Origin: Elusimicrobiota bacterium
GTDB taxonomy: Bacteria > Elusimicrobiota > Elusimicrobia > F11
Assembly: GCA_044221725.1 (NCBI GenBank)
Contig: JBGAON010000002.1
Coordinates: 403,000 to 466,999 of the forward strand
Reading direction: 5' to 3'
DNA: 64,000 bases
The translations under genes and the position numbers were made by a program. Shown here piece after piece: positions 8,227 through 64,000 of the stretch (positions within the stretch are counted from its first letter, which is position 1; each line of letters begins with the position of its first letter). The notes beneath the pieces were generated by a model, which was given only the letters and a program-made list of their open reading frames with translations, was not told the origin of the DNA and did not search any database.

Positions 8227-9760
8227 ATTCTCATATCGCACCCGCCAAGAAATCTGGGCCCAATTAAAATCTCGTCAACAAAAGCCTCTTAACGTTGCCA
8301 TCGTTGGCGGCGGTATTGTCGGTGCCGGTTTGCTGCGGGAGTTCGCGTTGCGCGGCGAGAATGACGTCGTCCTTTTCGAAAAAAAAGATTTCGCATCGGC
8401 GACGAGTGGATATTCGAGCAAACTCATCCACGCAGGAATCCGTTATCTTGAACAAGTATGGGTTCATTTGAAACACCTTCGCGTCCTCGCCGCTTGGCAA
8501 AATCTTCGGTTTGTTACTCAGGCTTCGTTGGAACGAAAACGTCTTGGCACGCTCGCTCCGGGCCTCGTCAAACCCAAGCCCATCTTTCTTGTGCTAGCGA
8601 AATCCGACCCAAGGTCGGTTCTCAGTGTGATTTCAGGCGTTTGGATCTATTATTTGACGCAGCTTTGCCAAGGTCAATTTTTTTCGGTGCCCCGCATGGC
8701 GGTTTCAAAACGAGCAATAAAAAAAGCAGCGCCGGAGCTGGACTCTGACCGAGTAAAGGCCTGTTTTTCATTCTGGGACTCCGAAACCGACGATGCGCGG
8801 CTCGTCATCGAAACGCTTCGGTCGGCGTACGACAATGGCGCGAAAGCGCTCAACTACATGGAGCTAATCGAATATTCCCAGATGAGCGATCATGTCGAAT
8901 TTGCGATAAAAGACAATGAGAGCGGAGAAATTCTTCGGCTTCGTGCAAAAAAGTTGATTGATGCGACCGGGCCGTTCGTTGATGACACGCGCCGTCGCGA
9001 AAATGTGACCCGTTCAAATGAGCCTCTTGTGGATCGTGTTGCCGGGGCCCATATCGATGTATACCCGGCCGTGTCCGACAAATCTTTTTACGTGAGCGCC
9101 AGTGACAACCGGCTCGTGTTTCTGCTCAAGCGGAACGAGGACGGCCTTGTCTACACCCGCATTGGCACCACCGAACGTCCGCTTGCCGAAAACGAATCGT
9201 CGGATGATCCAATTCCTACGACCGGCGAAATCGAATATCTGAAATCGATTGCAAAAGAATATTTCCCACAGGCGGTGATTGATAACAAAACGATTGTTCG
9301 CTTGAACTCAGGCATTCGTCCGCTGCGCGCTCAGCACGGCGTTGGAGCATTTCAGAAAAGCCGCGAGCACGATATTCTCGTGGAGGGAAATGTTGTTCGC
9401 GTGATCGGCGTTAAGCTGACGGATTTTCGCCGCGTTGCTGAAGAGGTGGGGGATTTGTTTCATTTGCCTAACAGGAATCGATCCAAAATCGTGCCGATTC
9501 GCTCGGAAGCCGTCGATCGGATTTATTGTGAGGCGTCTATGGAGGAGATTGTGCGCCGGACCATGCCTCTTCATTGGGACGATTACGTTCTTCGAAGAAA
9601 AGGCCTAAAGCCTCTGCTCGATCTGAAGATTCGGCCGAACGAATACCAGTCGGAATTTAATGCGTTCGCGGACCGAATGGGCTGGACATCCGAGCAGCGT
9701 CACGCCGAAAAAGAAAACGTCAGCCAAAAACGAGAAGTCCCACGCCCGGGGGAAAGATAA
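8207..9760 (+). CDS. glpD: FAD-dependent glycerol-3-phosphate dehydrogenase family protein
   Basis: GTG start. VAIVGGGIVGAG dinucleotide-binding motif, SSKLIHAGIRYLEQ and DDARLV blocks as in GlpD/GlpA. Overlaps the pheT 3' end by 20 nt. Confidence 0.75.
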   Translation: MAPSSAEFSYRTRQEIWAQLKSRQQKPLNVAIVGGGIVGAGLLREFALRGENDVVLFEKKDFASATSGYSSKLIHAGIRYLEQVWVHLKHLRVLAAWQNLRFVTQASLERKRLGTLAPGLVKPKPIFLVLAKSDPRSVLSVISGVWIYYLTQLCQGQFFSVPRMAVSKRAIKKAAPELDSDRVKACFSFWDSETDDARLVIETLRSAYDNGAKALNYMELIEYSQMSDHVEFAIKDNESGEILRLRAKKLIDATGPFVDDTRRRENVTRSNEPLVDRVAGAHIDVYPAVSDKSFYVSASDNRLVFLLKRNEDGLVYTRIGTTERPLAENESSDDPIPTTGEIEYLKSIAKEYFPQAVIDNKTIVRLNSGIRPLRAQHGVGAFQKSREHDILVEGNVVRVIGVKLTDFRRVAEEVGDLFHLPNRNRSKIVPIRSEAVDRIYCEASMEEIVRRTMPLHWDDYVLRRKGLKPLLDLKIRPNEYQSEFNAFADRMGWTSEQRHAEKENVSQKREVPRPGER

Positions 9761-50405: not shown

Positions 50406-51023
50406 TTGGATAAAGTAGCTTGGGGTGGCGTCGTTGCGGCCGGGTGGCCCGTGTTGTCCGTCCTTTTTCTTGCCTCAATCGTCACGTTCGCGGTCATTCT
50501 CGAGCGCTGGAAAGTGTTTTCAAAAATAAAAATCGGAGCGGCGCCATTTCTTGATTCGGTTCGAAAATCGACGGACGCCGAGAAAATAATCTCGTGGTGC
50601 GAAAAATCGGATCAGCCACTCGCATTTATCACGAAAGCCATTTACAAAGCACCATCAACGCGTGAAGACAAAGAGCGCTTGATGCAACGAGCGATTCAAA
50701 CGCTCGTTCAGAAATACGAAATGCGCGTTTCCATTCTCGGAACTGTTGCGAGCGTAGCGCCTTTCGTTGGGTTGCTTGGTACCGTTATCGGAATCATTCG
50801 TGCTTTTCACGCGGTCGCATCAACGTCGGCGGGCGGCGCCAGCGCGGTCGCGATCGGAATTTCGGAAGCATTGGTAGGCACGGCGGCGGGGCTTATCGTC
50901 GCGATTCCCGCGCTTCTTGCGTACAACTATTTTGCGAATCAGATTCGCTATCTGACGCAAGAATGGGAGTTGGCCGGCGAAGAAATAATTGATCTTTCTC
51001 TCAAGGGAAATCGGGGCGCTTAA
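50406..51023 (+). CDS. MotA/TolQ/ExbB-family proton channel
   Basis: 205 aa; three TM helices, conserved block in the TM2-TM3 region; followed by ExbD/TolR and TonB-like genes. Confidence 0.85.
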   Translation: MDKVAWGGVVAAGWPVLSVLFLASIVTFAVILERWKVFSKIKIGAAPFLDSVRKSTDAEKIISWCEKSDQPLAFITKAIYKAPSTREDKERLMQRAIQTLVQKYEMRVSILGTVASVAPFVGLLGTVIGIIRAFHAVASTSAGGASAVAIGISEALVGTAAGLIVAIPALLAYNYFANQIRYLTQEWELAGEEIIDLSLKGNRGA

Positions 51024-51449
51024 ATGAAAGTCGGTGGCTCGCGCGGCAACGGTCGCTATCACATTCAAGCGGAGATCAACATGATTCCATTGATCGACGT
51101 GGCGCTGGTGCTGCTTATCATCTTCATGGTCATTTCGCCGATTCTCGTGGAATCGCAAATGCGCGTGAACGTGCCGAAAGTGACGAGCACCGCTAGCAAG
51201 TCGGAGGAAACGGCACTCAAAGTTGAGATTGCGGCGAACGGCGGACTCGCGTTCCAAGGGAAAGTCGTCACGCGCGATGCACTGAAGACAGTCATGAGCT
51301 TGCAATTGCCTCCCGGACATAAGGCGTCGTTGCTCATTCAGGCCGATAAAGACGTTCCATTCGACTCGGTCGTATACGTGATGGACATAGCGAAACAGTT
51401 GAAAGTCGAAAAATTGGGCGTGGCGGTCCTTCCTCAAACGATGCAGTGA
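51024..51449 (+). CDS. ExbD/TolR-family biopolymer transport protein
   Basis: 141 aa; single N-terminal TM helix (INMIPLIDVALVLLIIFMV) with the conserved Asp, periplasmic domain. Confidence 0.85.
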   Translation: MKVGGSRGNGRYHIQAEINMIPLIDVALVLLIIFMVISPILVESQMRVNVPKVTSTASKSEETALKVEIAANGGLAFQGKVVTRDALKTVMSLQLPPGHKASLLIQADKDVPFDSVVYVMDIAKQLKVEKLGVAVLPQTMQ

Positions 51450-52240
51450 TGCGCCGTTATCTTCTTTCATCGGCCGGTATTCACTTTTCTCTGCTGGGCG
51501 CGTTCTTGTTGTTTGGTTGGTTTCACCGCTCAAATGATTTCTTGATGATTGATGGATTTGATTATGTTGGTTCCGGTGGAGGCGGGGATGGACGCGCCGG
51601 AAGTGGAGGGATTCCCGCAAAAAATATGGGACAGGTAGTTCCAATGCCCATCAAGGTTCCGGTTCCTGCGAAACCCGCTCCCATCCAAAAGCCCGTGGCT
51701 GCTGAACAGACCTGGTCCGTTAAAAATCCCAAGACAGCGCCAACCCCAAAAGAAACTGCGAAACCGGACACGCCGATCGAACGAGCGGAAAAGCCACAAA
51801 AAGAACAATCGAATGTCATTCGGCTTGGTGTGCCGGCGAACACGCAACCGTCGGAGGGTGGTTTTGATTTCGGCACTGGAAAAGGCGGGGGCGGCGGAGA
51901 AGGCGATGGAAAAGGCTTGGGACTCGGGATTGGCTTTGGGCCCGGCGAGGGCGGGGGATTTGGCGGTTTCGGTGGTTACCTTCGGATTTTGCGTGAACGT
52001 ATTTGGTCCGAGTGGGCGCAAACCGCGGTCTATGGATCAAACGAAGTGTGCATCGTCGGGCTCACCGTGGCACGTAGTGGCGACGTGAGTGAGATCAAAG
52101 TTGAAAAACCATCGAACAATCCATTTTATGACAACGTCGCATTGCGGGCGGTTCGTAACGCGTCGCCGCTTCCGCCATTGCCTTCGAGTTTTTCGCGCGA
52201 CTCGCAACGGTTTCGCATCAAATTTCGACTGATCGAATAA
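51446..52240 (+). CDS. TonB-family energy-transducer protein (TonB/TolA-like)
   Basis: 264 aa; N-terminal TM anchor, Pro-rich spacer (PMPIKVPVPAKPAPIQKP), Gly-rich low-complexity tracts, TonB-C-like domain. Confidence 0.7.
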   Translation: MMRRYLLSSAGIHFSLLGAFLLFGWFHRSNDFLMIDGFDYVGSGGGGDGRAGSGGIPAKNMGQVVPMPIKVPVPAKPAPIQKPVAAEQTWSVKNPKTAPTPKETAKPDTPIERAEKPQKEQSNVIRLGVPANTQPSEGGFDFGTGKGGGGGEGDGKGLGLGIGFGPGEGGGFGGFGGYLRILRERIWSEWAQTAVYGSNEVCIVGLTVARSGDVSEIKVEKPSNNPFYDNVALRAVRNASPLPPLPSSFSRDSQRFRIKFRLIE

Positions 52241-52244
52241 TCGA

Positions 52245-53288
52245 ATGCGCATTCTTGTTATTCAGCTGAAAGCGATCGGCGATGTTATTTGCACGACCCC
52301 CATTCCCGCCTACTTAAAGAAAGTTTTTCCCGATGCCGAAGTCGATTTTCTTGTCGGTCAAGTTTCGGCGCCGGTCGTTGAGACGAGTCCCTTTGTTGCA
52401 AACACGCTTGTGTATGACGCCTCAAAGCCGCTGCGCGAAATTTCCCGAATTCGGTCGCGGCGCTACGATGTGGTGATTGATTATTTAACGAACCCGCGCA
52501 CGCGCGTGTTAACCCTCGCTAGCGGCGCGCGATGGAAAATTGCGTTTGATCGCGGCCTTTCGCGGTCGTTCTATTACAATTTCCGCGCTCCGGTGCCGTC
52601 GGAACCGGAGTATGTGCCGGTTCGGAAGCTGCGACTTATTGACGAGTGGTTTGCCAAAATTAAAGTGCCCTCCAAAAAGCCGGAATTTGTGCGACCCAAA
52701 GTTTTTCTTAACGCGGAAGACGAGGCCTTTGCTGAGGAGTGGATTGCAAACGAAGGACTGAACGGAATTCCGTTCGCGATTGTTATGCCGATTCACAAAC
52801 ATCCGATTTGTCGCTGGCAACCCGAGGGGTTTCGTCAGGTTGCGACCGATCTCGTTCAAAAGTTGAAATTGCGCGTTTATTTTGGGTGGGGGCCGGGGGA
52901 GGAACAGGCGTTACGAAAAGTCCACCAAGGGCTCGAGAATCTCGTCGGGCTTTGTCCGCCGGTGTCCTTACGAAAGAATGCCGCTATTCTAAAACGGGCG
53001 ACCTTTCTGCTCGCGAACAATTCGGGATCGATTCATCTGGCTGTATCGGTTGGGACACCCACCGTGGCTATTTTCGGCCCGACCCGAGCTATCGATTGGA
53101 GTCCAGCGTTGTCGCCGATTGCCGATAACGGTTCCGATATCGCGCTACAAGCGGAAGGTCTCGAGTGTCTGGGGTGTCGTCTCAAAGAATGTCCGATCGG
53201 ACACCTGTGCATGAAGGACTTGTCGGCCGACACCGTGCTCGCGGCGTGCAACCGAATGGTCTCGGATACCAGATCAGCGAGACGATAG
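52245..53288 (+). CDS. glycosyltransferase family 9 (LPS heptosyltransferase-like)
   Basis: 347 aa; MRILVIQLKAIGDVI N-terminus and C-terminal NNSGSIHLAVSVGTPTVAIFGPT block typical of GT9 heptosyltransferases. Confidence 0.8.
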   Translation: MRILVIQLKAIGDVICTTPIPAYLKKVFPDAEVDFLVGQVSAPVVETSPFVANTLVYDASKPLREISRIRSRRYDVVIDYLTNPRTRVLTLASGARWKIAFDRGLSRSFYYNFRAPVPSEPEYVPVRKLRLIDEWFAKIKVPSKKPEFVRPKVFLNAEDEAFAEEWIANEGLNGIPFAIVMPIHKHPICRWQPEGFRQVATDLVQKLKLRVYFGWGPGEEQALRKVHQGLENLVGLCPPVSLRKNAAILKRATFLLANNSGSIHLAVSVGTPTVAIFGPTRAIDWSPALSPIADNGSDIALQAEGLECLGCRLKECPIGHLCMKDLSADTVLAACNRMVSDTRSARR

Positions 53289-53804
53289 TTCGGACACGTG
53301 CGCGCGAGCTCGAGTTATCATGGCTTGAGCAGAGTTGCCGTCACGCGGATAGATTGCCCATCCGATGCGCGCAAAAAGCAGTCCGGGATTATTCGGCCAC
53401 AAGAACTGCTGCAAGATATCCGTCCAGCGTGACGTTAGATCGTTGTAGTGGCCCGCACGAATCACATTCTGTGTGAGCGAAACAAGTCGTCTTGCGATTG
53501 TGTCGACTTTTCCGGGATCGACAGCATCAAACACAAGTCCCAGGCCATCCTGAAAGAACCCGACGTATTGACTTGGATGAACGGCCATACGAACCGCCTG
53601 AAAAACTTCTCTTAGAAATCCATTTACTACATGCGGCGGCCGTTTTTTCCGGAACTCAGCCATATTTTCAATTTTTAACATCACAATAAAAAACGGACGG
53701 TTGGTTTCGTTTGACTTTTTCATCGTCAGCTGAATTTGGTTCGCGAACTCGCTGCTTGTAATTTGTGCGGCCGATGCCTGCTGAACCTGCGTTTTGTTGT
53801 CCAT
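53274..53804 (-). CDS. hypothetical protein with degenerate GGDEF-like (nucleotidyl-cyclase fold) pattern
   Basis: 176 aa; block order resembles a GGDEF domain (FFIVMLKIENMAEF ... FFQDGLGLVF ... ARIGWAIYP) but the GG(D/E)EF site reads QDGLGL. Assignment is tentative. Confidence 0.35.
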   Translation of the reverse strand: MDNKTQVQQASAAQITSSEFANQIQLTMKKSNETNRPFFIVMLKIENMAEFRKKRPPHVVNGFLREVFQAVRMAVHPSQYVGFFQDGLGLVFDAVDPGKVDTIARRLVSLTQNVIRAGHYNDLTSRWTDILQQFLWPNNPGLLFARIGWAIYPRDGNSAQAMITRARAHVSELSSR

Positions 53805-54293
53805 GATGCCCCTCCGACGACGAAGATATATTTATTATGCCTGTCTTATTTATGTGTCGTCGGTGTTTTGCTTCCCTATTCTTTACCCTCTGTCGACGGA
53901 AAATACAATGTGACAAATGGCATCCTGAAAATGGGCGGAGTTCTGCGCATGAAAACACGTCGCGAAAATTTCATCGGTGTGTCACCGTCGTTTAAACACT
54001 CAACCGTAGATTCGGAACATGAAAACAAAAGAATTCGCTTGGACAAATGGCTTGTTTGAACAGGACACCCTCGGGTCGGCAACGGGCTCGGCAGATGAGG
54101 TGTTGTATACGATTCGCATGGCGGATCTGCTGCAAATGCCGGATGTGAATTTCGGTGAAGTGGCCGCCGTTGATGTGATGGTTCGTTCTCTCCTTAATTA
54201 AATTGCCAAGTTAACGAAATCCCTTTCTTTCTATCGAAATTGGCTCCAAGCTTTATCCAATGCCGCCCTCTTATTAATAAGGAGCTCCTAATC

Positions 54294-57200
54294 GTGACAC
54301 AAAAAAGAACCGTTTTGCCGTTGCTTTTGGTGTTTCAACTTGTTGTTCCATCGCTTCAAGCCTACGATGATGTTCGACTCACAAAAATCATTCCGTTGGT
54401 TGACCGGAAGACCGTTCCCGGAATAGTTCGTTTGGACAAAAACAAACAGCCGTGGATTCTCGGAGAAGAGAATCAAACGATCCAGCAAATTTCACCGGAA
54501 GGAAAGGCTTCCGTTGTTTTAATGCCGGGCAAAAAGGCGAACGCGCTCTTTAAGTCGCCCATCGATTTTGGATTTATGTCGGACGGATCTCTCGTTGTGG
54601 CGGATCCCGGGTTGGAGCGGGTGGCGGTTATCGCTCCTGAGAAAATCTCGGATAACCCAACGCCCAAAGACTGGAAGAAAACAAAATTGGTTTATTCTTT
54701 TCCGGCGAAAGGCGTGACCGCTGTTGCGGTAAGCGCCGATGACGTGATTGCCGTCGGGTATGAAGATCAATTGGCCATTGATGTTTTCTCAGCGGATGGC
54801 GTGCTCTTGCATCGACTTTATCCCTCGGAAAAATATCAACTTAAGAAAGTCGTGAGCATGGCGTACGGTGCGAACGGACAACTCTGGGTGCTCGAGCAAT
54901 CAAAAGGAGTGTTGCACCGATTTTCAGCCGACCGAAAGTGGTTGGGTGCGCTCGATGGCTTTGAGAATCCCCATAGCATCGCTGTTGATGAATACGGATT
55001 TGCTTATGTGTCTTTGAGCCCGGGCCGGTGGCGTGAAGTCAACCCGGATGGCACGTTGGCTGGCGTGTTTGGCACCAAAGGGAAAAATCCTGGAGAAATG
55101 CTCACACCGAAAGGAATCGCAACGATCGATTCCACGCAAATTCTCGTGTCCGAAACCGGCAACGGGCGTTTGCAAATTTTCCGAATAAACAACAAAGACA
55201 AAAAGTCACGGTTGTTTCGAGAGCCCGCTGCCCATGTGCAGGTGCGGCACATTTCTCAGTGGGAAGACCAGGTTCAAGGTGGCCTCGTCCACCCGAACGG
55301 AAGCATTTTTCTTCTGAACAGCGACCGAAATGTTTTTGAGTGGGTCAACGATCAAGGCGAGTCCAAGTCGTCGGTCAAGAAAAAAGGAAAAGGCACCGGC
55401 GGATTTGTTCATCCGCACAGTATGGTGCTTGATGACGCCGGAAAAATTTGGGTGTCCGATCAGGGCGATCACACCTTGAAGAAGATGTCGGATACCGGTG
55501 ACATTGAGCGGACGCTCGGGCAAAAAGGAAAGAAAGAAGGCGGCCTTAAGTCTCCGAGTTTTCTGAGCGTCCGATCCGACGGATCGGTCGTCGTCGCGGA
55601 CAAAGACAATTCGCGCGTCCAGGTGCTAAGTCCGAACGGACTTTTCTTGTTTCAAGTGGGCACCAACGGGAAAAAAGAAGGACAAATCAGTTCGCTTGTT
55701 GGGCTGGCGTCGAATTCCGAGCTCATCGCGCTATTGGATGGCGCTCGAAGGGCACTCATTTTTTACGACGCGAGCGGAAAATTTGTCTCCGAAATTACAA
55801 ACAAGGAAGGCAAGGCGCCGTACTGGAGTGAGCCGGCCAGTATTGCGTGCGACAGCGAGGGTCGGTTCTACGTGCTCGACAATGGCTCAAAGCGCGTGCG
55901 AATTTTTAACCGGAAGGGTCAATTTTTAGCCGACTTTTCTTCAAAAGGCCAAAACATTTCCTGTGGTATCGATCACAAAGTTCTCGTGACGGATCTGAAA
56001 ACAGTTTCTCTCTACACGGTGCGACTGGTGCCCAAGGCGCTACAAAATGTCGCAGCGGCCGACGTGGATGGCGACCTGCAAATCACGTGGGATAAGAACT
56101 TTGAAGCGAAAGAGTATGCCATCTATCGATCAAGCGCCGGTGGGGGGGCTGCAACGGTGGTTACAAAAGTCGCCGAACCGCCGTTTGTCGATCGAGACGT
56201 GACGCCCGGTGTTACCTATACCTATGGTGTTGTCGGTGTGAACGATGCTGGGAACGAAGGGAACTGGGCGGAGTCGAAGCCGGTGAAGGCACCAAAAAGA
56301 AAAGACGTCTCGCTGATCAGTATTCAGAAAATCGATCTTAAGCCGGTATTCACGGCGGCAAACAAGTACTACGTGAAAAACCCGATTGGAACGATAACGG
56401 TTCGCAACAACGATGACAAATCGTTCCGGAACGTGAAGATCACCTTGGGACTTAAAAAGTACTGTGACTTTCCAACCGAAATTGTGGTTCCGGACTTGGC
56501 CGCCGGCGAAGAGAAGGGGATTCCGGTGACGATGACATTTAATGATTCTATTTTTGAGTTGACCGAAGATACCCCCGTTCAAATGGATGTGAGAGTGTCG
56601 TACTTTGAAGATAATACCGAGAAAAGTATTTCGCAAAACGCTCCGATCACGCTTTACTCACGTAACACGATTGCCTGGAGTGAAAAGGACCGAATTGCAT
56701 CTTTCATCACTCCGAAGGATCCGCCGATCGTCGAATTTGCGCGAACGGCGATTCGCGACAACATGCTGCTATTAAAGGGATCCACGGTCACTCGCCCATT
56801 AGCGAAAGCGGCTCTTTTTTATGAATCGATGAACGCGCTCGGCATTTCTTATGTGCCCGATCCGAAGACGCCTTTCACCGAAGTCTCGAAAAATCCCGAC
56901 GTATTGGATTACGTTCAATTTCCTCGCGAAACGTTGCGGCGCAAAACCGGCGATTGTGACGACACAACAGCGCTGTTGGCGGCGCTTTTGGAGAGCGTTG
57001 GCGTTTCCGTGGCGCTCATCGATATGCCTGGTCACATTCTATTAATGGCGAACACGGAAGAGAGCGACATAGCGGTCATCGGACTCCCCGCGGAACGCTT
57101 CATTCGTTTCCAGGGAACGTATTGGGTTCCGATCGAAACGACACGTCTTGGACAAGATTTTGCGGCCGCATGGCAGAGCGGCATTGCGACGGTGTTATCG

Positions 57201-57776
57201 GCAAAAGATCCTTCGCAAATTCGCTATATGCGAGTGGAAGAAGCGATGGAAAAGTTTCCACCGGTAACACTCGTCGCGGTCGAAAAAGATTCCCAGGCGT
57301 TTCCCGCTGATAAAGTGCGCGGCACGTTTCCGCCGGTGTTAACAAAACTGCAAGAGGAGCGGTACGAAGCGCTGCTAAAAGACATCAAAAAAGAGATCAA
57401 AGACAATCCCGTGGATCATATGCTTCAAGTTCGATTGGGAATGATTCAAGTGGAAGGTGGGCATGCGGCGGAAGGCAGGCAAACGTTCATTTCTCTTTTA
57501 AAGGAAGACGAAGCGGTTGAGGTTCAATCCGCAGCGCGTAACAACCTCGGCAACCTTGCCTATCTGGACGGCGATTACAAAGAGGCGTTCACCCATTATG
57601 AAAAGGGCTTGATTCTAACGCCGGACGATGGCGGAATTATGGTCAACAAAGCACGGACCGCCTGGCGTCTTGGCGACAAAGAAACCGCGGTGAAAACCCT
57701 GGAACAAGCAAAACAAGTTTATTCCGACTGGCAGGATTTTGCGGCCGATATTCCCGCCGAATACCTGCCCAAATAA
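54294..57776 (+). CDS. large secreted multidomain protein: NHL-repeat beta-propeller(s), FN3/Ig-like domain, transglutaminase-like domain, C-terminal TPR
   Basis: Start placed at GTG 54294, 9 nt after AAGGAG, giving a signal peptide. Repeated NHL-like units (VADPGLERVAVI, VSETGNGRLQIF, VSDQGDHTLKKM, VADKDNSRVQVL, VLDNGSKRVRIF). Transglutaminase-like core TGDCDDTTALLAALLESVGV...GH. TPR-like helices near the C-terminus. Confidence 0.75.
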   Translation: MTQKRTVLPLLLVFQLVVPSLQAYDDVRLTKIIPLVDRKTVPGIVRLDKNKQPWILGEENQTIQQISPEGKASVVLMPGKKANALFKSPIDFGFMSDGSLVVADPGLERVAVIAPEKISDNPTPKDWKKTKLVYSFPAKGVTAVAVSADDVIAVGYEDQLAIDVFSADGVLLHRLYPSEKYQLKKVVSMAYGANGQLWVLEQSKGVLHRFSADRKWLGALDGFENPHSIAVDEYGFAYVSLSPGRWREVNPDGTLAGVFGTKGKNPGEMLTPKGIATIDSTQILVSETGNGRLQIFRINNKDKKSRLFREPAAHVQVRHISQWEDQVQGGLVHPNGSIFLLNSDRNVFEWVNDQGESKSSVKKKGKGTGGFVHPHSMVLDDAGKIWVSDQGDHTLKKMSDTGDIERTLGQKGKKEGGLKSPSFLSVRSDGSVVVADKDNSRVQVLSPNGLFLFQVGTNGKKEGQISSLVGLASNSELIALLDGARRALIFYDASGKFVSEITNKEGKAPYWSEPASIACDSEGRFYVLDNGSKRVRIFNRKGQFLADFSSKGQNISCGIDHKVLVTDLKTVSLYTVRLVPKALQNVAAADVDGDLQITWDKNFEAKEYAIYRSSAGGGAATVVTKVAEPPFVDRDVTPGVTYTYGVVGVNDAGNEGNWAESKPVKAPKRKDVSLISIQKIDLKPVFTAANKYYVKNPIGTITVRNNDDKSFRNVKITLGLKKYCDFPTEIVVPDLAAGEEKGIPVTMTFNDSIFELTEDTPVQMDVRVSYFEDNTEKSISQNAPITLYSRNTIAWSEKDRIASFITPKDPPIVEFARTAIRDNMLLLKGSTVTRPLAKAALFYESMNALGISYVPDPKTPFTEVSKNPDVLDYVQFPRETLRRKTGDCDDTTALLAALLESVGVSVALIDMPGHILLMANTEESDIAVIGLPAERFIRFQGTYWVPIETTRLGQDFAAAWQSGIATVLSAKDPSQIRYMRVEEAMEKFPPVTLVAVEKDSQAFPADKVRGTFPPVLTKLQEERYEALLKDIKKEIKDNPVDHMLQVRLGMIQVEGGHAAEGRQTFISLLKEDEAVEVQSAARNNLGNLAYLDGDYKEAFTHYEKGLILTPDDGGIMVNKARTAWRLGDKETAVKTLEQAKQVYSDWQDFAADIPAEYLPK

Positions 57777-57788
57777 TAGGAGGAGCGT

Positions 57789-58286
57789 ATGAAAAAGTGG
57801 ATCGTCATTTTGATGCTGGCAATTTCAATCAACGGGTACGCTTCCGCCGGCAAGAAGAAAAAAGTTCACCACTCCACGAAGCCGACTTCGACCAGCAAAA
57901 GCTCCGCAAAACTGACGGAGGTGGAGGCAGCACCAAAAAAGAAAACGAGCGAATCATTCCAGTCGTGGCTCAAAGAAATGAAAAAGCGTGTGGCGCACAC
58001 GAACACAAAGCAGAACCAGTTGGTGGCGGTGGCGGCCGTGCGCGGCAGTGAAACCCCGGATACACCACCGCTGTATTGGAAAGGGAAGAAAGGGGAAGGC
58101 AAGGTTCAGGCGCCCGAGATAAAAGATTTTGAGACGGCGATTGACGCGGCACTGAGCGGCGATTCGGTGGCCGCCAAAGAGAAATTGCAATCCTTTGTGC
58201 TTGCTTATCCGCAAAGTTCGCTTGTTGCCGATGCGAACGAAACACTGACCAAACTGGATGCGACGGCTCCCACAGCCAATCCCTAA
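57789..58286 (+). CDS. hypothetical secreted Lys-rich protein
   Basis: 165 aa; strong RBS (AGGAGG), signal peptide, Lys-rich low-complexity N-terminal region; 12 nt after the large protein. Confidence 0.45.
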   Translation: MKKWIVILMLAISINGYASAGKKKKVHHSTKPTSTSKSSAKLTEVEAAPKKKTSESFQSWLKEMKKRVAHTNTKQNQLVAVAAVRGSETPDTPPLYWKGKKGEGKVQAPEIKDFETAIDAALSGDSVAAKEKLQSFVLAYPQSSLVADANETLTKLDATAPTANP

Positions 58287-58305: not shown

Positions 58306-61300
58306 ATGCAACTTGAGCAATACCGGCGGATTCTCTCCGACCGCATCTTCGTGTTCGATGGTGCCATGGGCACCAACCTGCAGGCTTTCAACCCGACAAT
58401 CGATGACTATGAGGGAAAGGAAGGCTGCACAGAAGTTCTATGTTTCTCGAGACCGCAATGGTTGAAACAAATCCACGCGGACTTTTTCAAAGCGGGTTGC
58501 GACATCGTTGAAACCAATTCGTTCGGCGCGAACCGCATCGTTCTCGGCGAATATGGACTGGAATCGCAAGTTCTCGAGTACAACCGCGAAGCCGCGAAAA
58601 TTGCTCGCGAGGTCGCCCAACAATTCTCTACGCCGGACCACCCGCGTTTTGTTGCCGGTTCTATGGGCCCCGGTACAAAACTGCCGTCCCTGGGTCACAC
58701 GAATTTTGACACACTTCGGTTTAACTATGCCGAGCAGGCCGAAGGGTTGATCGAGGGCGGTGTCGATCTTCTTTTGATTGAAACCTCCCAAGATCTTCTT
58801 CAAGTGAAAGCCGCTATCAACGGTTGTTTGGACGCAATGAGGAAGACGAAAGTTCGCATTCCATTGAATGTTCAGGTGACAATTGAATCGACCGGTACGA
58901 TGCTCCTTGGCAGCGATATGGCCACCGCCATTTCTGTCATCGAATGTTTTCCCGTGGATACCATAGGCCTCAATTGCGCCACGGGCCCGCGCGAGATGAG
59001 CGAACATGTGCGCACGCTCGGCCAACTTACCAATCGGTACATTTCTGTTTTGCCGAACGCCGGTTTGCCCGAGAACGTCGGTGGAAAAGCGGTTTATAAG
59101 TTAACTCCAGCGGATTTGGCGGCTCACCTGGTCGAGTTTATTCATCAGCATGGTGTGAATGTGGTCGGGGGGTGTTGCGGAACGACGCCCGATCATTTGG
59201 CCGCTGTCGTTCAAGCGGTTTCTAAGATCACGCCGAAGCAGCGCACACCAAAACGCGTGGCCACCGTTGCAAGTTTGTACATGACCACACCCATTCGCCA
59301 AGAACCGGCACCGCTCATTATTGGTGAGCGCACGAACGCGAACGGTTCAAAACTTTTTCGTGAACTCCTTTTGGCCAACGATTACGATTCGATGGTGAAC
59401 GTGGCCAAGGAACAAGAGGCGGAAGGGGCGCATGTGCTGGACGTTTGCACCGCCTATGTTGGACGCAACGAAATCAAAGACATGGATGAGACAATCAAGC
59501 GGTTTGTGCTTCAAGCGCGCGTTCCGCTCATGATTGATTCCACCGAAGCACCGGTTATTGAATCGGCCCTCAAACTGTACGGTGGTAAGTCCATAATTAA
59601 TTCGATCAATCTTGAAGATGGCGAAGAAAGAATGGCCAAGATTTGTCCGATGCTGACCACCTACGGTGCGGCCGTCGTTGCTCTCACAATTGATGAGGCA
59701 GGAATGGCGAAGACCAAACAAAAGAAGGTAGAGATTGCAAAACGCATTTACGATCTCGCCGTCAAGAAATACGGGGTGCCGGGCGAGAATATTGTTTTTG
59801 ACACGCTTACCTTTACGCTCGGTAGCGGAGAAGAAGAATTCCGCAAAGCCGGCATTGAAACGATCGAAGCTATTCGCGAGATCAAACGCGAATTGCCCGA
59901 CGTGCACACCACGCTGGGAGTGAGCAATATTTCTTTTGGACTGCAGTCAGCGTCACGCGCGGTTCTCAATAGTGTGTTTTTGCATTACGCTATTGAGGCG
60001 GGTCTCGACTCGGCCATCGTTAACGCAAAAAAAATTATGCCGCTGTTCCAGATCGATGAAAAAGGTCGCGAGCTCGCGAGACAACTTGTTTTTGATGAAC
60101 GAAAATTTGGAGCCGACGGCATCTGCATTTACGATCCGCTTAAAGAATTTATGGCGTATTACGCCGGCGCGAAGGCGGATGCTGGGCCGACAGCAAAAGA
60201 GGAACCCAAATCGGTCGAAGAGAATTTGAAGCAGCGCATCATTAACGGCAACAAGCAAAACATCGAAAAAGTTTTAGAAACAGCACTCGAAAAATATTCA
60301 GCGCTCGATGTCATTAACACAATTTTGCTCGAAGGAATGCGGGTGGTGGGAGAATTGTTTGGCGCCGGCCAAATTCAGTTGCCGTTTGTGTTGCAGTCGG
60401 CCGAGACCATGAAAGCGGCGGTCCGTTATCTTGAACCGCACATTCCGAAAGTCGCTGGTGGCACATCGAAAGGGAAGCTTGTTATTGCGACCGTGAAAGG
60501 AGATGTCCACGACATCGGGAAGAATCTCGTGGACATTATTCTTTCAAACAACGGTTACACCGTGATCAATTTGGGGATCAAGCAGCCGATCGATGCTATT
60601 TTAAAAGCGGCCGAAGAACACAAACCGCACGCCATCGGCTTGTCGGGCCTTCTCGTTAAGTCCACCGCGGTCATGAAAGAGAATCTCGAGGAAATGAACA
60701 ACCGCAATATCACTTACGATGTAATTCTCGGCGGAGCCGCGCTCACGCGCAAATTTGTGGAAGTCGATTTGCGCGACATCTATAAAGGAAAGGTTTTTTA
60801 TGCGAACGACGCGTTCGCCGGGTTGCGCCTCATGGATGAACTCGTCGGTGCGGTGGCCGATAAAAAATTAACGACAATCCGAAAAAGGGAAGAAATCCTG
60901 GCAGCGACTTCAAAGGAATCGTCGTCGTTAAAATCGAAGCCAGTCACCAGCACGGGTGTTCTTATTCGATCAAAGGTTCCACCCAGTTTGTCGATTCCGA
61001 AGCCGCCTTTCTGGGGGGCGCGGGTTGTGCGTGGGATTGATTTGAAAGAAGTGTTTGCATTTATGAACGAAACGGCGTTGCTAAAGGTACGCTGGGGTTT
61101 TAAACGCGTGCGGGAAAATAGTCTCGAAGAATACAATCGAATGATGGAACAGACCGTGTATCCGCTTTACGAAAAATGGAAACAATACGTGTTGCGCGAG
61201 GGAATTTTTCATCCCCAAGTGGCGTACGGTTATTTTCCGTGTCAATCGGACGGGGATTCGCTCGTGATTTTTAATGAGGATTTGAAAACCGAACGACAGC

Positions 61301-61791
61301 GATACGTGTTCCCGCGGCAACACAAGGATCCGTATTTGTGCATCTCGGACTTCTTTCGGCCGCTCGGGTCGCCGGAGATGGACGTCATTGGGATGATGAT
61401 TGTCACCATCGGTTCCGACGCGACACCACGTATTCAGGAAATTTACAAGAGCAACCAATACACGGACTATTTGTATCTGCATGGGCTTAGTGTGGAAACC
61501 GCCGAAGCGCTCGCGGAGTATTGGCACAAACGAATTCGTTTGGAGTTGGGGATAGCGAACCAGGATTCTCCGACCCCACGCGACTTGTTCCAACAGAAAT
61601 ACCAAGGATCTCGCTACAGTTTTGGTTATCCCGCCTGTCCAAATCTTGAGGATCAAGTAAAAATATTTGATTTGCTTGAGCCCAATCGCATCGGCGTTGA
61701 GTTGTCCGAAGAATTTCAGCTTCATCCGGAACAATCAACGTCCGCCATCATCGTGCACCATCCCGACGCCAAGTATTTTTCCGTGGACTAA
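58306..61791 (+). CDS. metH: cobalamin-dependent methionine synthase
   Basis: 1161 aa; homocysteine-binding and pterin-binding barrels, B12-binding DxHxxG (DVHDIGKN), C-terminal AdoMet reactivation domain. Confidence 0.9.
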   Translation: MQLEQYRRILSDRIFVFDGAMGTNLQAFNPTIDDYEGKEGCTEVLCFSRPQWLKQIHADFFKAGCDIVETNSFGANRIVLGEYGLESQVLEYNREAAKIAREVAQQFSTPDHPRFVAGSMGPGTKLPSLGHTNFDTLRFNYAEQAEGLIEGGVDLLLIETSQDLLQVKAAINGCLDAMRKTKVRIPLNVQVTIESTGTMLLGSDMATAISVIECFPVDTIGLNCATGPREMSEHVRTLGQLTNRYISVLPNAGLPENVGGKAVYKLTPADLAAHLVEFIHQHGVNVVGGCCGTTPDHLAAVVQAVSKITPKQRTPKRVATVASLYMTTPIRQEPAPLIIGERTNANGSKLFRELLLANDYDSMVNVAKEQEAEGAHVLDVCTAYVGRNEIKDMDETIKRFVLQARVPLMIDSTEAPVIESALKLYGGKSIINSINLEDGEERMAKICPMLTTYGAAVVALTIDEAGMAKTKQKKVEIAKRIYDLAVKKYGVPGENIVFDTLTFTLGSGEEEFRKAGIETIEAIREIKRELPDVHTTLGVSNISFGLQSASRAVLNSVFLHYAIEAGLDSAIVNAKKIMPLFQIDEKGRELARQLVFDERKFGADGICIYDPLKEFMAYYAGAKADAGPTAKEEPKSVEENLKQRIINGNKQNIEKVLETALEKYSALDVINTILLEGMRVVGELFGAGQIQLPFVLQSAETMKAAVRYLEPHIPKVAGGTSKGKLVIATVKGDVHDIGKNLVDIILSNNGYTVINLGIKQPIDAILKAAEEHKPHAIGLSGLLVKSTAVMKENLEEMNNRNITYDVILGGAALTRKFVEVDLRDIYKGKVFYANDAFAGLRLMDELVGAVADKKLTTIRKREEILAATSKESSSLKSKPVTSTGVLIRSKVPPSLSIPKPPFWGARVVRGIDLKEVFAFMNETALLKVRWGFKRVRENSLEEYNRMMEQTVYPLYEKWKQYVLREGIFHPQVAYGYFPCQSDGDSLVIFNEDLKTERQRYVFPRQHKDPYLCISDFFRPLGSPEMDVIGMMIVTIGSDATPRIQEIYKSNQYTDYLYLHGLSVETAEALAEYWHKRIRLELGIANQDSPTPRDLFQQKYQGSRYSFGYPACPNLEDQVKIFDLLEPNRIGVELSEEFQLHPEQSTSAIIVHHPDAKYFSVD

Positions 61792-61807: not shown

Positions 61808-64000
61808 ATGCTACAGACCATTGTGCGTTTCTTCGCCGGGACGCGAAACGAACGCATCATTAAACAAATCCAACCGCTTGTTGATGAGATCAACACGCTT
61901 GAAGCGCAAATTCAGCCGCTGTCGAACGACGAACTTAAAGCGAAAACGACCGAATTTCGAAACGCGCTCGCCAACGGGAAAGCCCTCGACGAGATTCTTC
62001 CGGAGGCATTCGCCGTTGTGCGGGAAGCATCGAAGCGAACAATCGGTTTGCGGCATTTCGATGTGCAACTCATCGGTGGAATTGTCTTGCATCAAGGAAA
62101 AATTGCCGAGATGAAAACCGGTGAAGGGAAAACGCTTGTTGCCACGCTGCCGGCCTACTTGAACGCTCTCGAAGGAAAAGGCGTGCACATTGTGACCGTG
62201 AACGACTATCTGGCCAAGCGCGACCGTGAGTGGATGGGACCCATTTTCGAATTCCTTGGTCTGACCGTGGGTTTCATCCAACACGACATGCCGCTTCATC
62301 AGCACAAGGAAATGCATCACAAAGATATCACGTACATAACGAACAACGAATTGGGATTTGATTATCTGCGCGACAATCTTGTGCGCGTCGCCGAGCAACG
62401 TTCGCTGCGTCCGTTCAATTACGCGATCGTCGACGAAGTCGACTCCATCCTTATCGACGAAGCACGCACACCGCTGATCATTTCAGGGCAAGGGGACCCG
62501 GCCACGCAACGCTATTACGCGGCCGACAAATTGATTCCGCATTTGCAGGGCCGTTTCATCACCGAGAAAGAGGAAATTCAAGCGAAGTACACGAACACCG
62601 ATCTTTCGATCGGATACGATTTCATCGTGGATGAAAAAAATCACAGCGTCGTATTGACCGAGCAAGGGATTCAGAAATGCGAGCGAATGTTGAAGGTGCC
62701 GTCGTTGTACGACGATTTGCAAAACGAATGGGTTCACCATATTACGACGGCGCTCCGTGCGCACAATCTTTACAAGAAAGACGTTCACTATGTCGTAAAA
62801 GACGGCGAAGTCATCATCGTTGACGAGTTTACGGGTCGCTTGATGCCGGGCCGCCGTTGGTCGGACGGTTTGCACCAAGCGGTCGAAGCAAAAGAGCACA
62901 TGCGCATCGCGGAGGAAAACCAAACGCTCGCGACGGTCACGTTCCAAAACTTCTTCCGTCAATTTAAGAAACTTTCTGGAATGACCGGCACAGCGCTCAC
63001 CGAAGCCGACGAGTTCTGGCAGATCTACAAATTGGACGTTGTTGCGATTCCATCCAACAAGCCGAACATCCGTGTCGATTATGCGGACCGGATTTTCCGA
63101 ACAGAACGTGAAAAATTTAACGCGATCATCGATGAAATTGATGGGCTTTGGAAAAAGGGGCAACCGGTTCTTGTTGGTACGCGATCCATCGAAAAATCGG
63201 AAGCGCTGTCGGCGCTGCTGCGTCGCAAAGGAATCCCGCACCAGGTGTTGAACGCGAAGTACCACCAACAGGAAGCGCAAATTATTGCGCAAGCCGGACG
63301 AAAAGGTGCTGTCACGATCGCGACCAATATGGCGGGGCGCGGCACGGACATTTTGCTCGGTGGAAATCCGCAAGATGCGCAGGAAGCGGAGACGGTTCGT
63401 GTGGCCGGTGGCTTGCATGTTCTCGGCTCCGAGCGTCACGAATCACGCCGTATTGATAACCAACTGCGGGGGCGAACGGGCCGACAAGGCGATCCGGGGA
63501 GTTCGCGTTTCTATTTATCCCTTGAAGACGAACTCATGCGTTTGTTCGGTTCGGAGAGAATTTCCGCCATCATGGGAAAGCTTGGAATGGAAGAAGGGGA
63601 AGACATTCAGCATCCTTGGATCAACCGCGGCGTGGCCAACGCTCAAGCAAAAGTCGAAGCGATGAATTTCGATATTCGCAAACAGGTGCTTGATTACGAC
63701 AATGTCATGAACAAGCAGCGCGAAGCAATTTATCGGCTGCGTAACGCAATCCTCGACAAGTCGGATATGACCGAGCGCACCAAAGATATGATCCAAGAAG
63801 CGATTGAGGATCAACTTGCTGCTGTGGCGCCAAAAAATGCGGATGTGTCTCGTTGGGATTTCGAAACGTTAAAAGCATGGCTCAAAGCGGATTTTGGTAT
63901 TGAATGGACGGTGCCTGTCGAAGAGATTAACGGGCGAGAAAATCTTGAAGATCGGCTCAAAGAAGCCATCCAGAAAGCCCACGACGTGCGACAGGCGGAA
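61808..64000 (+). CDS. secA: preprotein translocase ATPase SecA (5' part; continues past window end)
   Basis: Read directly from the + strand: [20 protein letters not shown]..., Walker [13 protein letters not shown] box, frame open to position 64000. Not in the ORF track because it has no stop in the window; the listed minus-strand ORFs here are antisense artefacts. Confidence 0.9.

Follow-up and report, generated by a model that had tools for sequence, protein, structure and literature searches.

What use would a bacterium have for an exported protein in which an apparent transglutaminase active site lies between two sets of interaction modules, and does the small exported protein encoded directly behind it belong to the same system? 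The question is posed by a locus in a 64,000-nucleotide stretch of an Elusimicrobiota genome (assembly GCA_044221725.1, contig JBGAON010000002.1, positions 403,000 to 466,999 of the forward strand), which we refer to in full as the window. A first-pass annotation of its letters had described there a large secreted protein with NHL, FN3-like, transglutaminase-like, and TPR parts and had supposed that it might act with its small neighbor. Our results indicate that the large protein is very probably a periplasmic transglutaminase-fold enzyme that works with this co-encoded partner. Both proteins carry export signals, an invariant Cys-His-Glu set lies in the transglutaminase-fold domain of the enzyme, and the genes for the enzyme and for the partner, which bears a Val-Arg-Gly (VRG) motif, are inherited together across phyla. 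The genes and the enzyme's export signal lie as follows.

54294 to 57776 (stop included), plus strand: gene for the large exported NHL/FN3/Ig-like/transglutaminase-fold/TPR protein, 1160 amino acids (aa), GTG start.
54294 to 54362, plus strand: signal peptide of the large protein, residues 1 to 23, with predicted cleavage between LQA and YD, read from the sequence.
57789 to 58286, plus strand: gene for the exported partner, 165 aa, supported by the open reading frame (ORF), the partner hidden Markov model (HMM), and motif counts.

The large gene lies within a plus-strand ORF of 54240 to 57776, in which GTG 54294 is in frame and is preceded by AAGGAG 8 nucleotides (nt) upstream; the protein is identical to a GTG-started 1160-aa product on record at NCBI. 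An exported protein beginning at this GTG, as had been annotated, is thus upheld by ORF, start, ribosome-binding site, and signal peptide alike, and only the length originally given, 1161 aa, has to be corrected, because it counts the stop codon. The N terminus reads as a typical Sec signal peptide (MTQKRTVLPLLLVFQLVVPSLQA followed by YDD), which appears as a low-confidence N-terminal helix in the full-length model described below, and the A-Y-[DE] junction at its cleavage site is kept in homologs. The partner ORF begins 12 nt past the stop of the large gene, and the 12-nt spacer, TAGGAGGAGCGT, is itself a ribosome-binding site, carrying AGGAGG. The secreted Lys-rich protein of 165 aa reported at this spot is indeed there, with 24 Lys residues (14.5%) and a signal peptide of its own (NGYASA followed by GKKKK, with cleavage at ASA/G).

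A full-length AlphaFold2 model built on 18 homologs (mean predicted local distance difference test score [pLDDT], 85.9), taken together with Pfam and PDB searches, divides the mature protein into six parts.

54363 to 55193, plus strand: first beta-propeller, residues ~24 to 300, 24 strands, ~6 blades (DSSP strand list of the full-length model).
55236 to 56027, plus strand: second, NHL beta-propeller, residues ~315 to 578, 24 strands, ~6 blades (Pfam NHL, TRIM matches, strand list).
56037 to 56288, plus strand: FN3-like domain, residues ~582 to 665 (model strands at residues 587 to 649, fn3 matches in homologs).
56316 to 56657, plus strand: Ig-like/arrestin-like beta-sandwich, residues ~675 to 788, the first half of the conserved module.
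56676 to 57254, plus strand: transglutaminase-fold (papain-like) core, residues ~795 to 987.
57306 to 57740, plus strand: long linker helix (residues 1005 to 1037) and ~3.5 TPR repeats (residues 1043 to 1149) (Pfam, PDB matches, homolog alignment, model).

The 48 strands between residues 24 and 578 amount to 12 blades, a count made from strands and not from coordinates, and they probably form two six-bladed propellers, the simplest reading of the model; this provides the blade count of ~12 that the first-pass annotation had left to structure prediction. The protein belongs to the NHL-repeat beta-propellers both by profile (Pfam NHL, E = 1e-22, 79.4 bits against a cutoff of 20) and by its four-stranded blades, and the NHL domains of TRIM71 and TRIM2 match residues ~260 to 553 in a PDB sequence search, with E values down to 4e-37. 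Likewise, it belongs to the TPR repeat proteins, with 30.9 bits against 27 for the Pfam model TPR_2, paired helices at residues 1043 to 1149 in the model, and matches to consensus TPR structures. A 33-residue linker helix precedes the TPRs, in which the motif A1081-x-N1083-N1084-x-G1086 is invariant across the homolog alignment. The PDB sequence matches of the large protein are limited to these NHL and TPR parts. Pfam fn3 gave no match on the window protein itself but did match at the aligned position in distant homologs (including P0017 to P0021, P0105, and L005), where FN3 is duplicated, and the model places six to seven strands in this region (residues ~587 to 660). The order proposed in the first pass, with NHL and FN3 interaction modules ahead of a transglutaminase-like core and TPR helices, is therefore borne out in Pfam and in the model, the NHL and TPR parts standing above the Pfam threshold and the FN3 part being a putative assignment from the model and from the fn3 matches of relatives.

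The three residues expected to carry out catalysis, Cys888 (nt 56955 to 56957), His914 (nt 57033 to 57035), and Glu948 (nt 57135 to 57137), fall in the motifs TGDCDD, MPGHIL, and WVPIETT exactly where they had been located. All three are invariant in 18 full-length homologs (down to 26% identity) and in 34 diverse sequences, and little or no variation is seen in the motifs around them, D-x4-P-R, G-D-C-D-D, P-G-H, and W-x-P-x-E-x-T. The acid position is Glu in 18/18 and 34/34 of the aligned sequences and never Asp, so the earlier remark that Glu replaces the usual Asp holds and describes the whole family, not a local oddity. The motif WVPIETT otherwise resembles the Transglut_core motif WvplDpt. 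In a model of the sandwich-plus-core module (pLDDT, 91.8; predicted template modeling score, 0.87), Cys888 sits at a helix N terminus, one strand begins with His914, and the long strand that comes after it ends with Glu948, a predicted layout that is the one expected of a transglutaminase or papain-like site. The modeled module has the papain-like alpha+beta fold of the superfamily, with its nucleophilic Cys at a helix N terminus against a beta-sheet; it departs from the Cys-His-Asp triad of transglutaminase-like proteins in Glu948, a conservative variant that does not necessarily affect the chemistry. Its best fold matches are the putative protease 3kd4, PNGase, and LapG. For its first half, the matches are sandwiches of the Ig-like, arrestin-like, and LEA-2-like types, among them the beta-barrels of TG2, TG3, and factor XIII. 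By Pfam, the window protein stays below the thresholds of DUF553 (18.4 versus 20.5 bits), Transglut_core (15 versus 23 bits), and Transglut_core2 (14.1 versus 23.5 bits), and eight of nine relatives give weak Transglut_core matches (best E = 2e-6). The transglutaminase-like core is thus supported by the fold match and falls short of the sequence thresholds.

The module is widespread. In an exhaustive HMMER search with residues 670 to 1001 as the query, in which we counted representatives of 50%-identity clusters, the family comprised 2639 representatives at E ≤ 1e-3 and 1226 at E ≤ 1e-30, and the match was always one unit of ~320 residues in proteins of ~530 to 1700 aa. Among nine sampled architectures, no Pfam model fell on the module at E ≤ 0.001, and TPRs almost always follow it. 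The N terminus ahead of it varies (NHL propellers, TPR arrays, a beta-helix, or a GNA1162-like lipoprotein domain), and one architecture has a CsgG/LpoB-like domain after the module. When one genome per species was scanned, 382 species genomes carried the family; the best 80 of these, tallied by eye, included ~49 from Elusimicrobiota, 16 from Nitrospirota, 5 from Desulfobacterota, 7 from Proteobacteria, 2 from Spirochaetota, and 1 unclassified. The cultured Hylemonella gracilis is among the proteobacterial carriers, and the partner search described below added cultured Curvibacter and Rhodoferax. The closest relatives are Elusimicrobiota metagenome-assembled genomes (MAGs), whose modules are 72 to 76% identical to that of the window. 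Databases name the homologs "hypothetical," "TPR repeat protein," or "6-bladed beta-propeller," and no study or characterization of the family was found in Pfam, NCBIfam, PADLOC, or the literature searched. Of the first-pass annotation's worry that the architecture might be both common and already characterized in close relatives, the first half has come true (2639 clusters, 382 species), but for the second we found no characterization. The Tenderiales NHL proteins UetH and UetI, considered as candidates, are unrelated proteins of a cytochrome cluster.

Gene neighborhoods connect the enzyme with the small protein. A partner homolog follows the enzyme gene in two close and one distant Elusimicrobiota loci and in one Burkholderiales locus, and in the distant Elusimicrobiota and Burkholderiales loci no other neighbor is shared. 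An HMM built from five partner sequences and applied to 86 loci matched immediately downstream of the enzyme gene, on the same strand and once per locus, in 79 of them, spanning Elusimicrobiota, Nitrospirota, Desulfobacterota, and Proteobacteria. The gap between the two genes ranges from −4 to ~160 nt, larger negative values being artifacts of long open frames in GC-rich DNA. In five of the seven misses the contig or locus ends at or just past the enzyme gene, a sixth (L079) holds a frameshifted remnant of the partner, and the last (L058) is a spirochete locus. The spirochete locus has a convergent gene (7497 to 8459, minus strand) for a 320-aa exported protein with TETLGVRGDDAG and TPR-like helices, and the same type of convergent protein takes the place of the small partner in a further spirochete locus, L081 (4175 to 5158, minus strand), where the only HMM match is weak and on the opposite strand. 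Both proteins have an N terminus that looks FecR-like by eye and the motif T-x-T-L-G-V-R-G-D-D. With the seven misses accounted for, every locus that has downstream sequence has a VRG-motif protein beside the enzyme. One MAG (NC_groundwater_1674) even has two paralogous enzyme genes (L033 and L060), each with a partner directly downstream. Such pairing across phyla ties the enzyme functionally to the small protein, and genome-context comparison has in this way made the link to the partner, at first only supposed, much stronger.

The partner consists, in order, of the signal peptide, a Lys/Ser/Thr-rich linker, an amphipathic helix, the motifs AVAAVRG (nt 58026 to 58046) and LYWKG (nt 58071 to 58085), and a C-terminal helical hairpin of the YbgF type. 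In 75 partners, the positions of V-[AG]-[AG]-V-R-G are occupied by V in 68, A or G in 71, A or G in 71, V in 69, R in 73, and G in 74; the (L)YWKG that follows retains its W in 55 and its K in 53, and the hairpin has F136, P141, S143, and D148-A149 as conserved residues. The Lys-rich linker, on the other hand, is limited to the close clade and absent from the partners of Burkholderiales and of distant Elusimicrobiota. Given this lack of conservation, we rejected it as the functional core of the partner, and the Lys richness singled out in the first pass turns out not to be a feature of the family.

The C-terminal 40 to 50 residues of the partner match a TPR hairpin like that of YbgF/CpoB (F..F...YP.S....DA; TIGR02795, E = 0.0046), and the hairpin matches the YbgF and BamD models weakly, which probably explains why partner homologs bear the automatic Joint Genome Institute (JGI) name "TolA-binding protein." The likeness stops there. 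The YbgF model gives 17.5 bits over 39 residues against a cutoff of 90.1, there is one hairpin and no full TPR domain, and the gene pairs with the enzyme gene and not with tolB-pal. To our knowledge, moreover, the VRG and YWKG motifs are not YbgF features. Judged by these sequence comparisons, the partner is not a YbgF.

How might the two proteins work together? We propose, with not quite even confidence, that they form a two-gene periplasmic module in which the partner is the substrate of the thiol enzyme. The large protein would be exported by Sec, and its variable N-terminal part (here the two NHL propellers and FN3) would most likely place or dock the enzyme. The constant part would be the catalytic machine, made up of the Ig-like sandwich, the Cys888-His914-Glu948 domain, the long helix, and about three TPRs. 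Either the TPR groove, with its invariant NNLGN, or the sandwich may hold the partner, and the thiol active site may then attack the V-[AG]-[AG]-V-R-G strand. A hydrophobic P2 residue and a basic P1 residue (Val-Arg/Gly) suit papain-like enzymes. The outcome could be cleavage, as by LapG on LapA, or the formation of a thioester for transfer to another acceptor. LapG, a transglutaminase-like cysteine protease of the periplasm whose Cys is essential (PMC3032545), cleaves LapA at an Ala-Ala site and thereby sets it free (PMC10990149); it would be the closest working precedent for a partner that serves as substrate. It differs in several ways: LapG (BTLCP, DUF920) is a calcium-dependent single domain of ~25 kDa with Cys-His-Asp, whereas the present enzyme is a 1160-aa multidomain protein with Cys-His-Glu; its target is a giant type 1-secreted adhesin, whereas the candidate target here is a partner of 130 to 200 aa; and it is held by the cyclic di-GMP (c-di-GMP) receptor LapD, whereas the loci studied here are without LapA, LapD, or type 1 secretion genes. 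Sequence similarity to BTLCP/LapG is undetectable, and the module lies outside that family.

Several findings weigh against the partner being cut or modified by such an enzyme. The similarity of the module to any characterized enzyme is below family thresholds in sequence, and its Foldseek E values against the PDB are weak (2e-4 at best). Because of these weak values, and because a module-only profile (A4) found no solved structure by sequence in the PDB (best E = 0.035), we describe the module as clear in its predicted fold class and without a close solved relative; the profile of alignment A5 was swamped by TPR matches. The third triad residue is Glu, whereas characterized transglutaminase-like enzymes have Asp, and it lies 34 residues past His914, beyond the ~17 to 23 residues between His and acid in TG2, PNGase, and LapG. 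If these departures meant a catalytically dead scaffold, the whole protein would be only a periplasmic adaptor of interaction modules. We regard this as the least probable of the readings considered: an atypical acid residue could be taken in its favor, but the Cys, His, and Glu and their flanking motifs are invariant across phyla at ~30% overall identity, a pattern not expected of a degenerate site. On the side of the partner, the Ala-Ala pair of the motif is ~60% conserved, with Ala-Gly as the main alternative, and the motif as a whole is equally compatible with a binding strand, an inhibitor, or a cleavage site. The partner might accordingly be a dedicated regulator or inhibitor that occupies or shields the active site until the real target is met, the target being bound by the NHL propellers, FN3, or TPR, as in protease-inhibitor pairs or in the holding of LapG by LapD. 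This seems to us unlikely, though a serious contender. Its case draws on the tight one-to-one pairing of the genes, the paralogous pairs in one genome, the known arrangement of adjacent protease and inhibitor genes (e.g., staphopain and staphostatin), and N-terminal binding modules whose variability, set against an unchanging partner, suggests lineage-specific targets. However, where an inhibitor is known to be encoded together with a secreted cysteine protease, it is mostly a cytoplasmic safeguard, whereas the partner has its own signal peptide, and a small-residue strand followed by Arg-Gly resembles a site of recognition or cleavage more than it does the fold of an inhibitor.

Two further explanations place the pair in envelope construction. 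A true transglutaminase or transpeptidase could covalently attach the partner via Lys to peptidoglycan or to another protein of the envelope, thereby assembling or anchoring a structure there. The transglutaminase fold is what would be expected of such an enzyme, the window partner is 14.5% Lys, the Lys of YWKG is kept in 53 of 75 partners, the partner has a C terminus similar to the hairpins found in the envelope proteins YbgF/CpoB and BamD, and envelope domains of the LpoB-, CsgG-, or GNA1162-like types occur in variant enzymes. We nevertheless find cross-linking rather improbable, as distant partners lack the Lys-rich linker, no Gln is conserved in the partner, and most characterized prokaryotic transglutaminase-like domains that we know of are hydrolases (LapG, PNGase, lasso-peptide B proteins). 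Alternatively, the enzyme could be an amidase or peptidase that acts on peptidoglycan or another non-protein envelope polymer, with the partner as an adaptor like CpoB or LpoB for PBP1B. Papain-like folds do include the NlpC/P60 cell wall hydrolases, and the envelope domains of the variants, the YbgF-like hairpin with its "TolA-binding protein" name, and TolQ/TolR/TonB-like genes upstream in the window all lean this way. Still, such a role is very improbable, given that the Tol-like neighbors are not conserved beyond the close clade, that no LysM, SPOR, or PG_binding domain was found in the window protein or the sampled architectures, and that the partner fails the YbgF model (17.5 versus 90.1 bits).

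Other known proteins with related folds differ as well. BDI_1141 of Parabacteroides distasonis (PDB 3kd4), a structural-genomics entry whose only designation is "putative protease," also combines a beta-sandwich with a transglutaminase-like domain, but it is 11 to 14% identical, and its root mean square deviation of 9.9 to 16 Å over both domains means that these are arranged differently; it is not known to have propellers, TPRs, or a partner with the VRG motif. PNGase, TG2, TG3, and factor XIII have Cys-His-Asp, are eukaryotic and cytosolic or extracellular, differ in domain order and partners, and have no detectable sequence relationship to the module family. What emerges is a large family within the transglutaminase-like superfamily, on which our searches found no study and whose members have Glu in the triad, a sandwich of their own, TPRs as a constant tail, and a small obligate partner. 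Knowledge of bacterial periplasmic transglutaminase-fold cysteine enzymes comes mainly from LapG, a regulator of biofilm adhesins; the module family is much larger and separate, and it occurs in the cultivable Rhodoferax, Curvibacter, and Hylemonella. The pair offers a defined enzyme and a candidate substrate open to direct in vitro study. Should it prove to be merely another periplasmic protease with a private substrate, the result would be useful annotation and not new biology.

Among named families, only the anti-phage protein ProA (NCBIfam NF058533, 1903 positions) is significantly similar to the module in sequence. Residues 697 to 963 of the window protein match ProA positions 11 to 285 with 47.9 bits against a cutoff of 1500, and nine of nine module sequences match positions 11 to 278 of the profile (best E = 2.2e-16). 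Among plasmids, tblastn pointed to a protein of 2060 aa, annotated as DUF3320 domain-containing, on the Picosynechococcus sp. PCC 7003 plasmid NZ_CP016476.1 (L086, 7938 to 14120). This protein passes the ProA cutoff (1627 bits) and carries DUF4011, a superfamily 1 helicase, an MTES_1575 nuclease, and DUF3320; its gene has toxin-antitoxin and DUF262 genes around it. An hhalign comparison of the module profile with its N terminus gave 96.8% probability (E = 2e-10) and aligned the ProA GtCaD on GDCDD and GH on GH; the ProA acid residue appears by eye to be Asp, in LLIFDSS. ProA is cytoplasmic, has ~1900 to 2060 aa, and is encoded among defense genes, whereas the window protein is exported, has housekeeping neighbors, and yields no helicase or nuclease domain in Pfam and no match in PADLOC. 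By these profile comparisons, the window protein is not a ProA, and the two have one ancestral module in common. We rejected an anti-phage defense system at this locus given the missing PADLOC match, the housekeeping neighbors (gatA/B, metH, secA), and the signal peptides on both proteins. The relationship gives the N-terminal domain of ProA its first set of relatives. No paper describing ProA or this domain was found in the literature searched, so ProA stays a database name.

Clustering of all flanking ORFs produced no universal neighbor other than the partner. In Elusimicrobiota loci, the pair is preceded by gatA, a NUDIX gene, and gatB or followed by metH and secA. In eight loci from Beta- and Gammaproteobacteria, Desulfobacterota, and Nitrospirota, the gene directly before that of the enzyme, in the same orientation, encodes a CHASE2-nucleotide cyclase (class III adenylate/guanylate).

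L005, 3906 to 5936: CHASE2-cyclase gene.
L087, 2042 to 4072: CHASE2-cyclase gene.
L078, 1566 to 3611: CHASE2-cyclase gene.
L051, L064, L066, L072, and L085: CHASE2-cyclase gene, likewise upstream.

In the complete genome of Rhodoferax sp. BAB1, 25 nt separate the cyclase and enzyme genes, and the arrangement suggests a three-gene unit of CHASE2-cyclase, enzyme, and partner in those lineages. We know of no established ligand for the CHASE2 domain, and the recurrent neighbor is a possible lead to the source of one. The pair might then be a periplasmic proteolytic signaling step in which the enzyme turns the partner into a ligand, or removes it, and a membrane sensor reads out the result; we treat this as a long shot. 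The sensor would be the upstream CHASE2-cyclase in the lineages that have it and, in the clade of the window, might be the adjacent degenerate GGDEF protein. If this were so, the N-terminal module of ProA would be a peptide-sensing or peptide-processing trigger, and one enzyme family would link an envelope signaling module with an immune sensor.

The genes around the pair in the window itself are the following.

50406 to 53288, plus strand: ExbB/TolQ, ExbD/TolR, and TonB_2-domain genes, then a family 9 heptosyltransferase gene.
53274 to 53804, minus strand: stand-alone degenerate GGDEF-like protein, 176 aa.
58306 to 61791, plus strand: metH, cobalamin-dependent methionine synthase, 1161 aa, 19 nt past the partner stop.
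61811 to 62398, minus strand: ORF of 195 aa, downstream of metH.
62483 to 63439, minus strand: ORF of 318 aa, downstream of metH.

The GGDEF-like protein has QDGLG in place of GGDEF and keeps GWAIYPRDG; its gene lies divergently upstream of the enzyme system in eight loci of the close clade, and it could be a c-di-GMP-related receptor. Its 3' end (53274) overlaps the convergent 3' end of the heptosyltransferase gene (53288) by 15 nt. The gene order from ExbB/TolQ to the heptosyltransferase is the same in the relative L001. We also considered the pair as part of a Tol-Pal operon and rejected this, the Tol-like neighbors occurring only in the close clade. Downstream, the order enzyme, partner, metH, secA is kept in the close relatives L001 and L002 and not in distant ones; co-transcription with metH is likely in the close clade, and a functional link of the pair to metH seems unlikely. 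The 195-aa and 318-aa ORFs have no Pfam match at E ≤ 0.001. By coincidence, the metH product has the same 1161 aa that were originally assigned to the large protein.

There remains the stretch from 53805 to 54293 ahead of the enzyme gene, which had been taken as unusually long and non-coding. It holds a small conserved gene.

54019 to 54201, plus strand: conserved small ORF of 60 aa without a signal peptide (HMM matches, codon-position pattern).

The same small gene has been called upstream of the homolog in an independent MAG, and the translation aligns with the product of that gene and with an ORF of a third locus. An HMM built from these three sequences matched an ORF in the corresponding place upstream in 12 loci, 10 of them non-redundant (E = 1e-13 to 1e-35), always between the GGDEF-like gene and the large-protein gene and confined to the close clade, in which the module is at least 58% identical to that of the window. 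Among the 10 non-redundant copies, differences at codon positions 1, 2, and 3 number 1310, 930, and 1756, a distribution that marks the 60-codon ORF as coding. The product is acidic, with the motif YT[LI]..D[FL]..MP.[VL][DN]F, the C-terminal end SL[FL]N, and the invariant residues W8, Y30, T31, M40-P41-D42, F45, and N60; it matched no family. The true intergenic pieces are 53805 to 54018 (214 bp, shared with the divergent gene) and 54202 to 54293 (92 bp). A search of 53805 to 54293 against Rfam gave no family match, and for this reason, and because the stretch holds a protein-coding ORF, we rejected an RNA element there. Promoter-like and terminator-like sites are not commoner in this stretch than in shuffled sequence; one promoter-like site, at 53882 to 53909, lies 5' of the small ORF.

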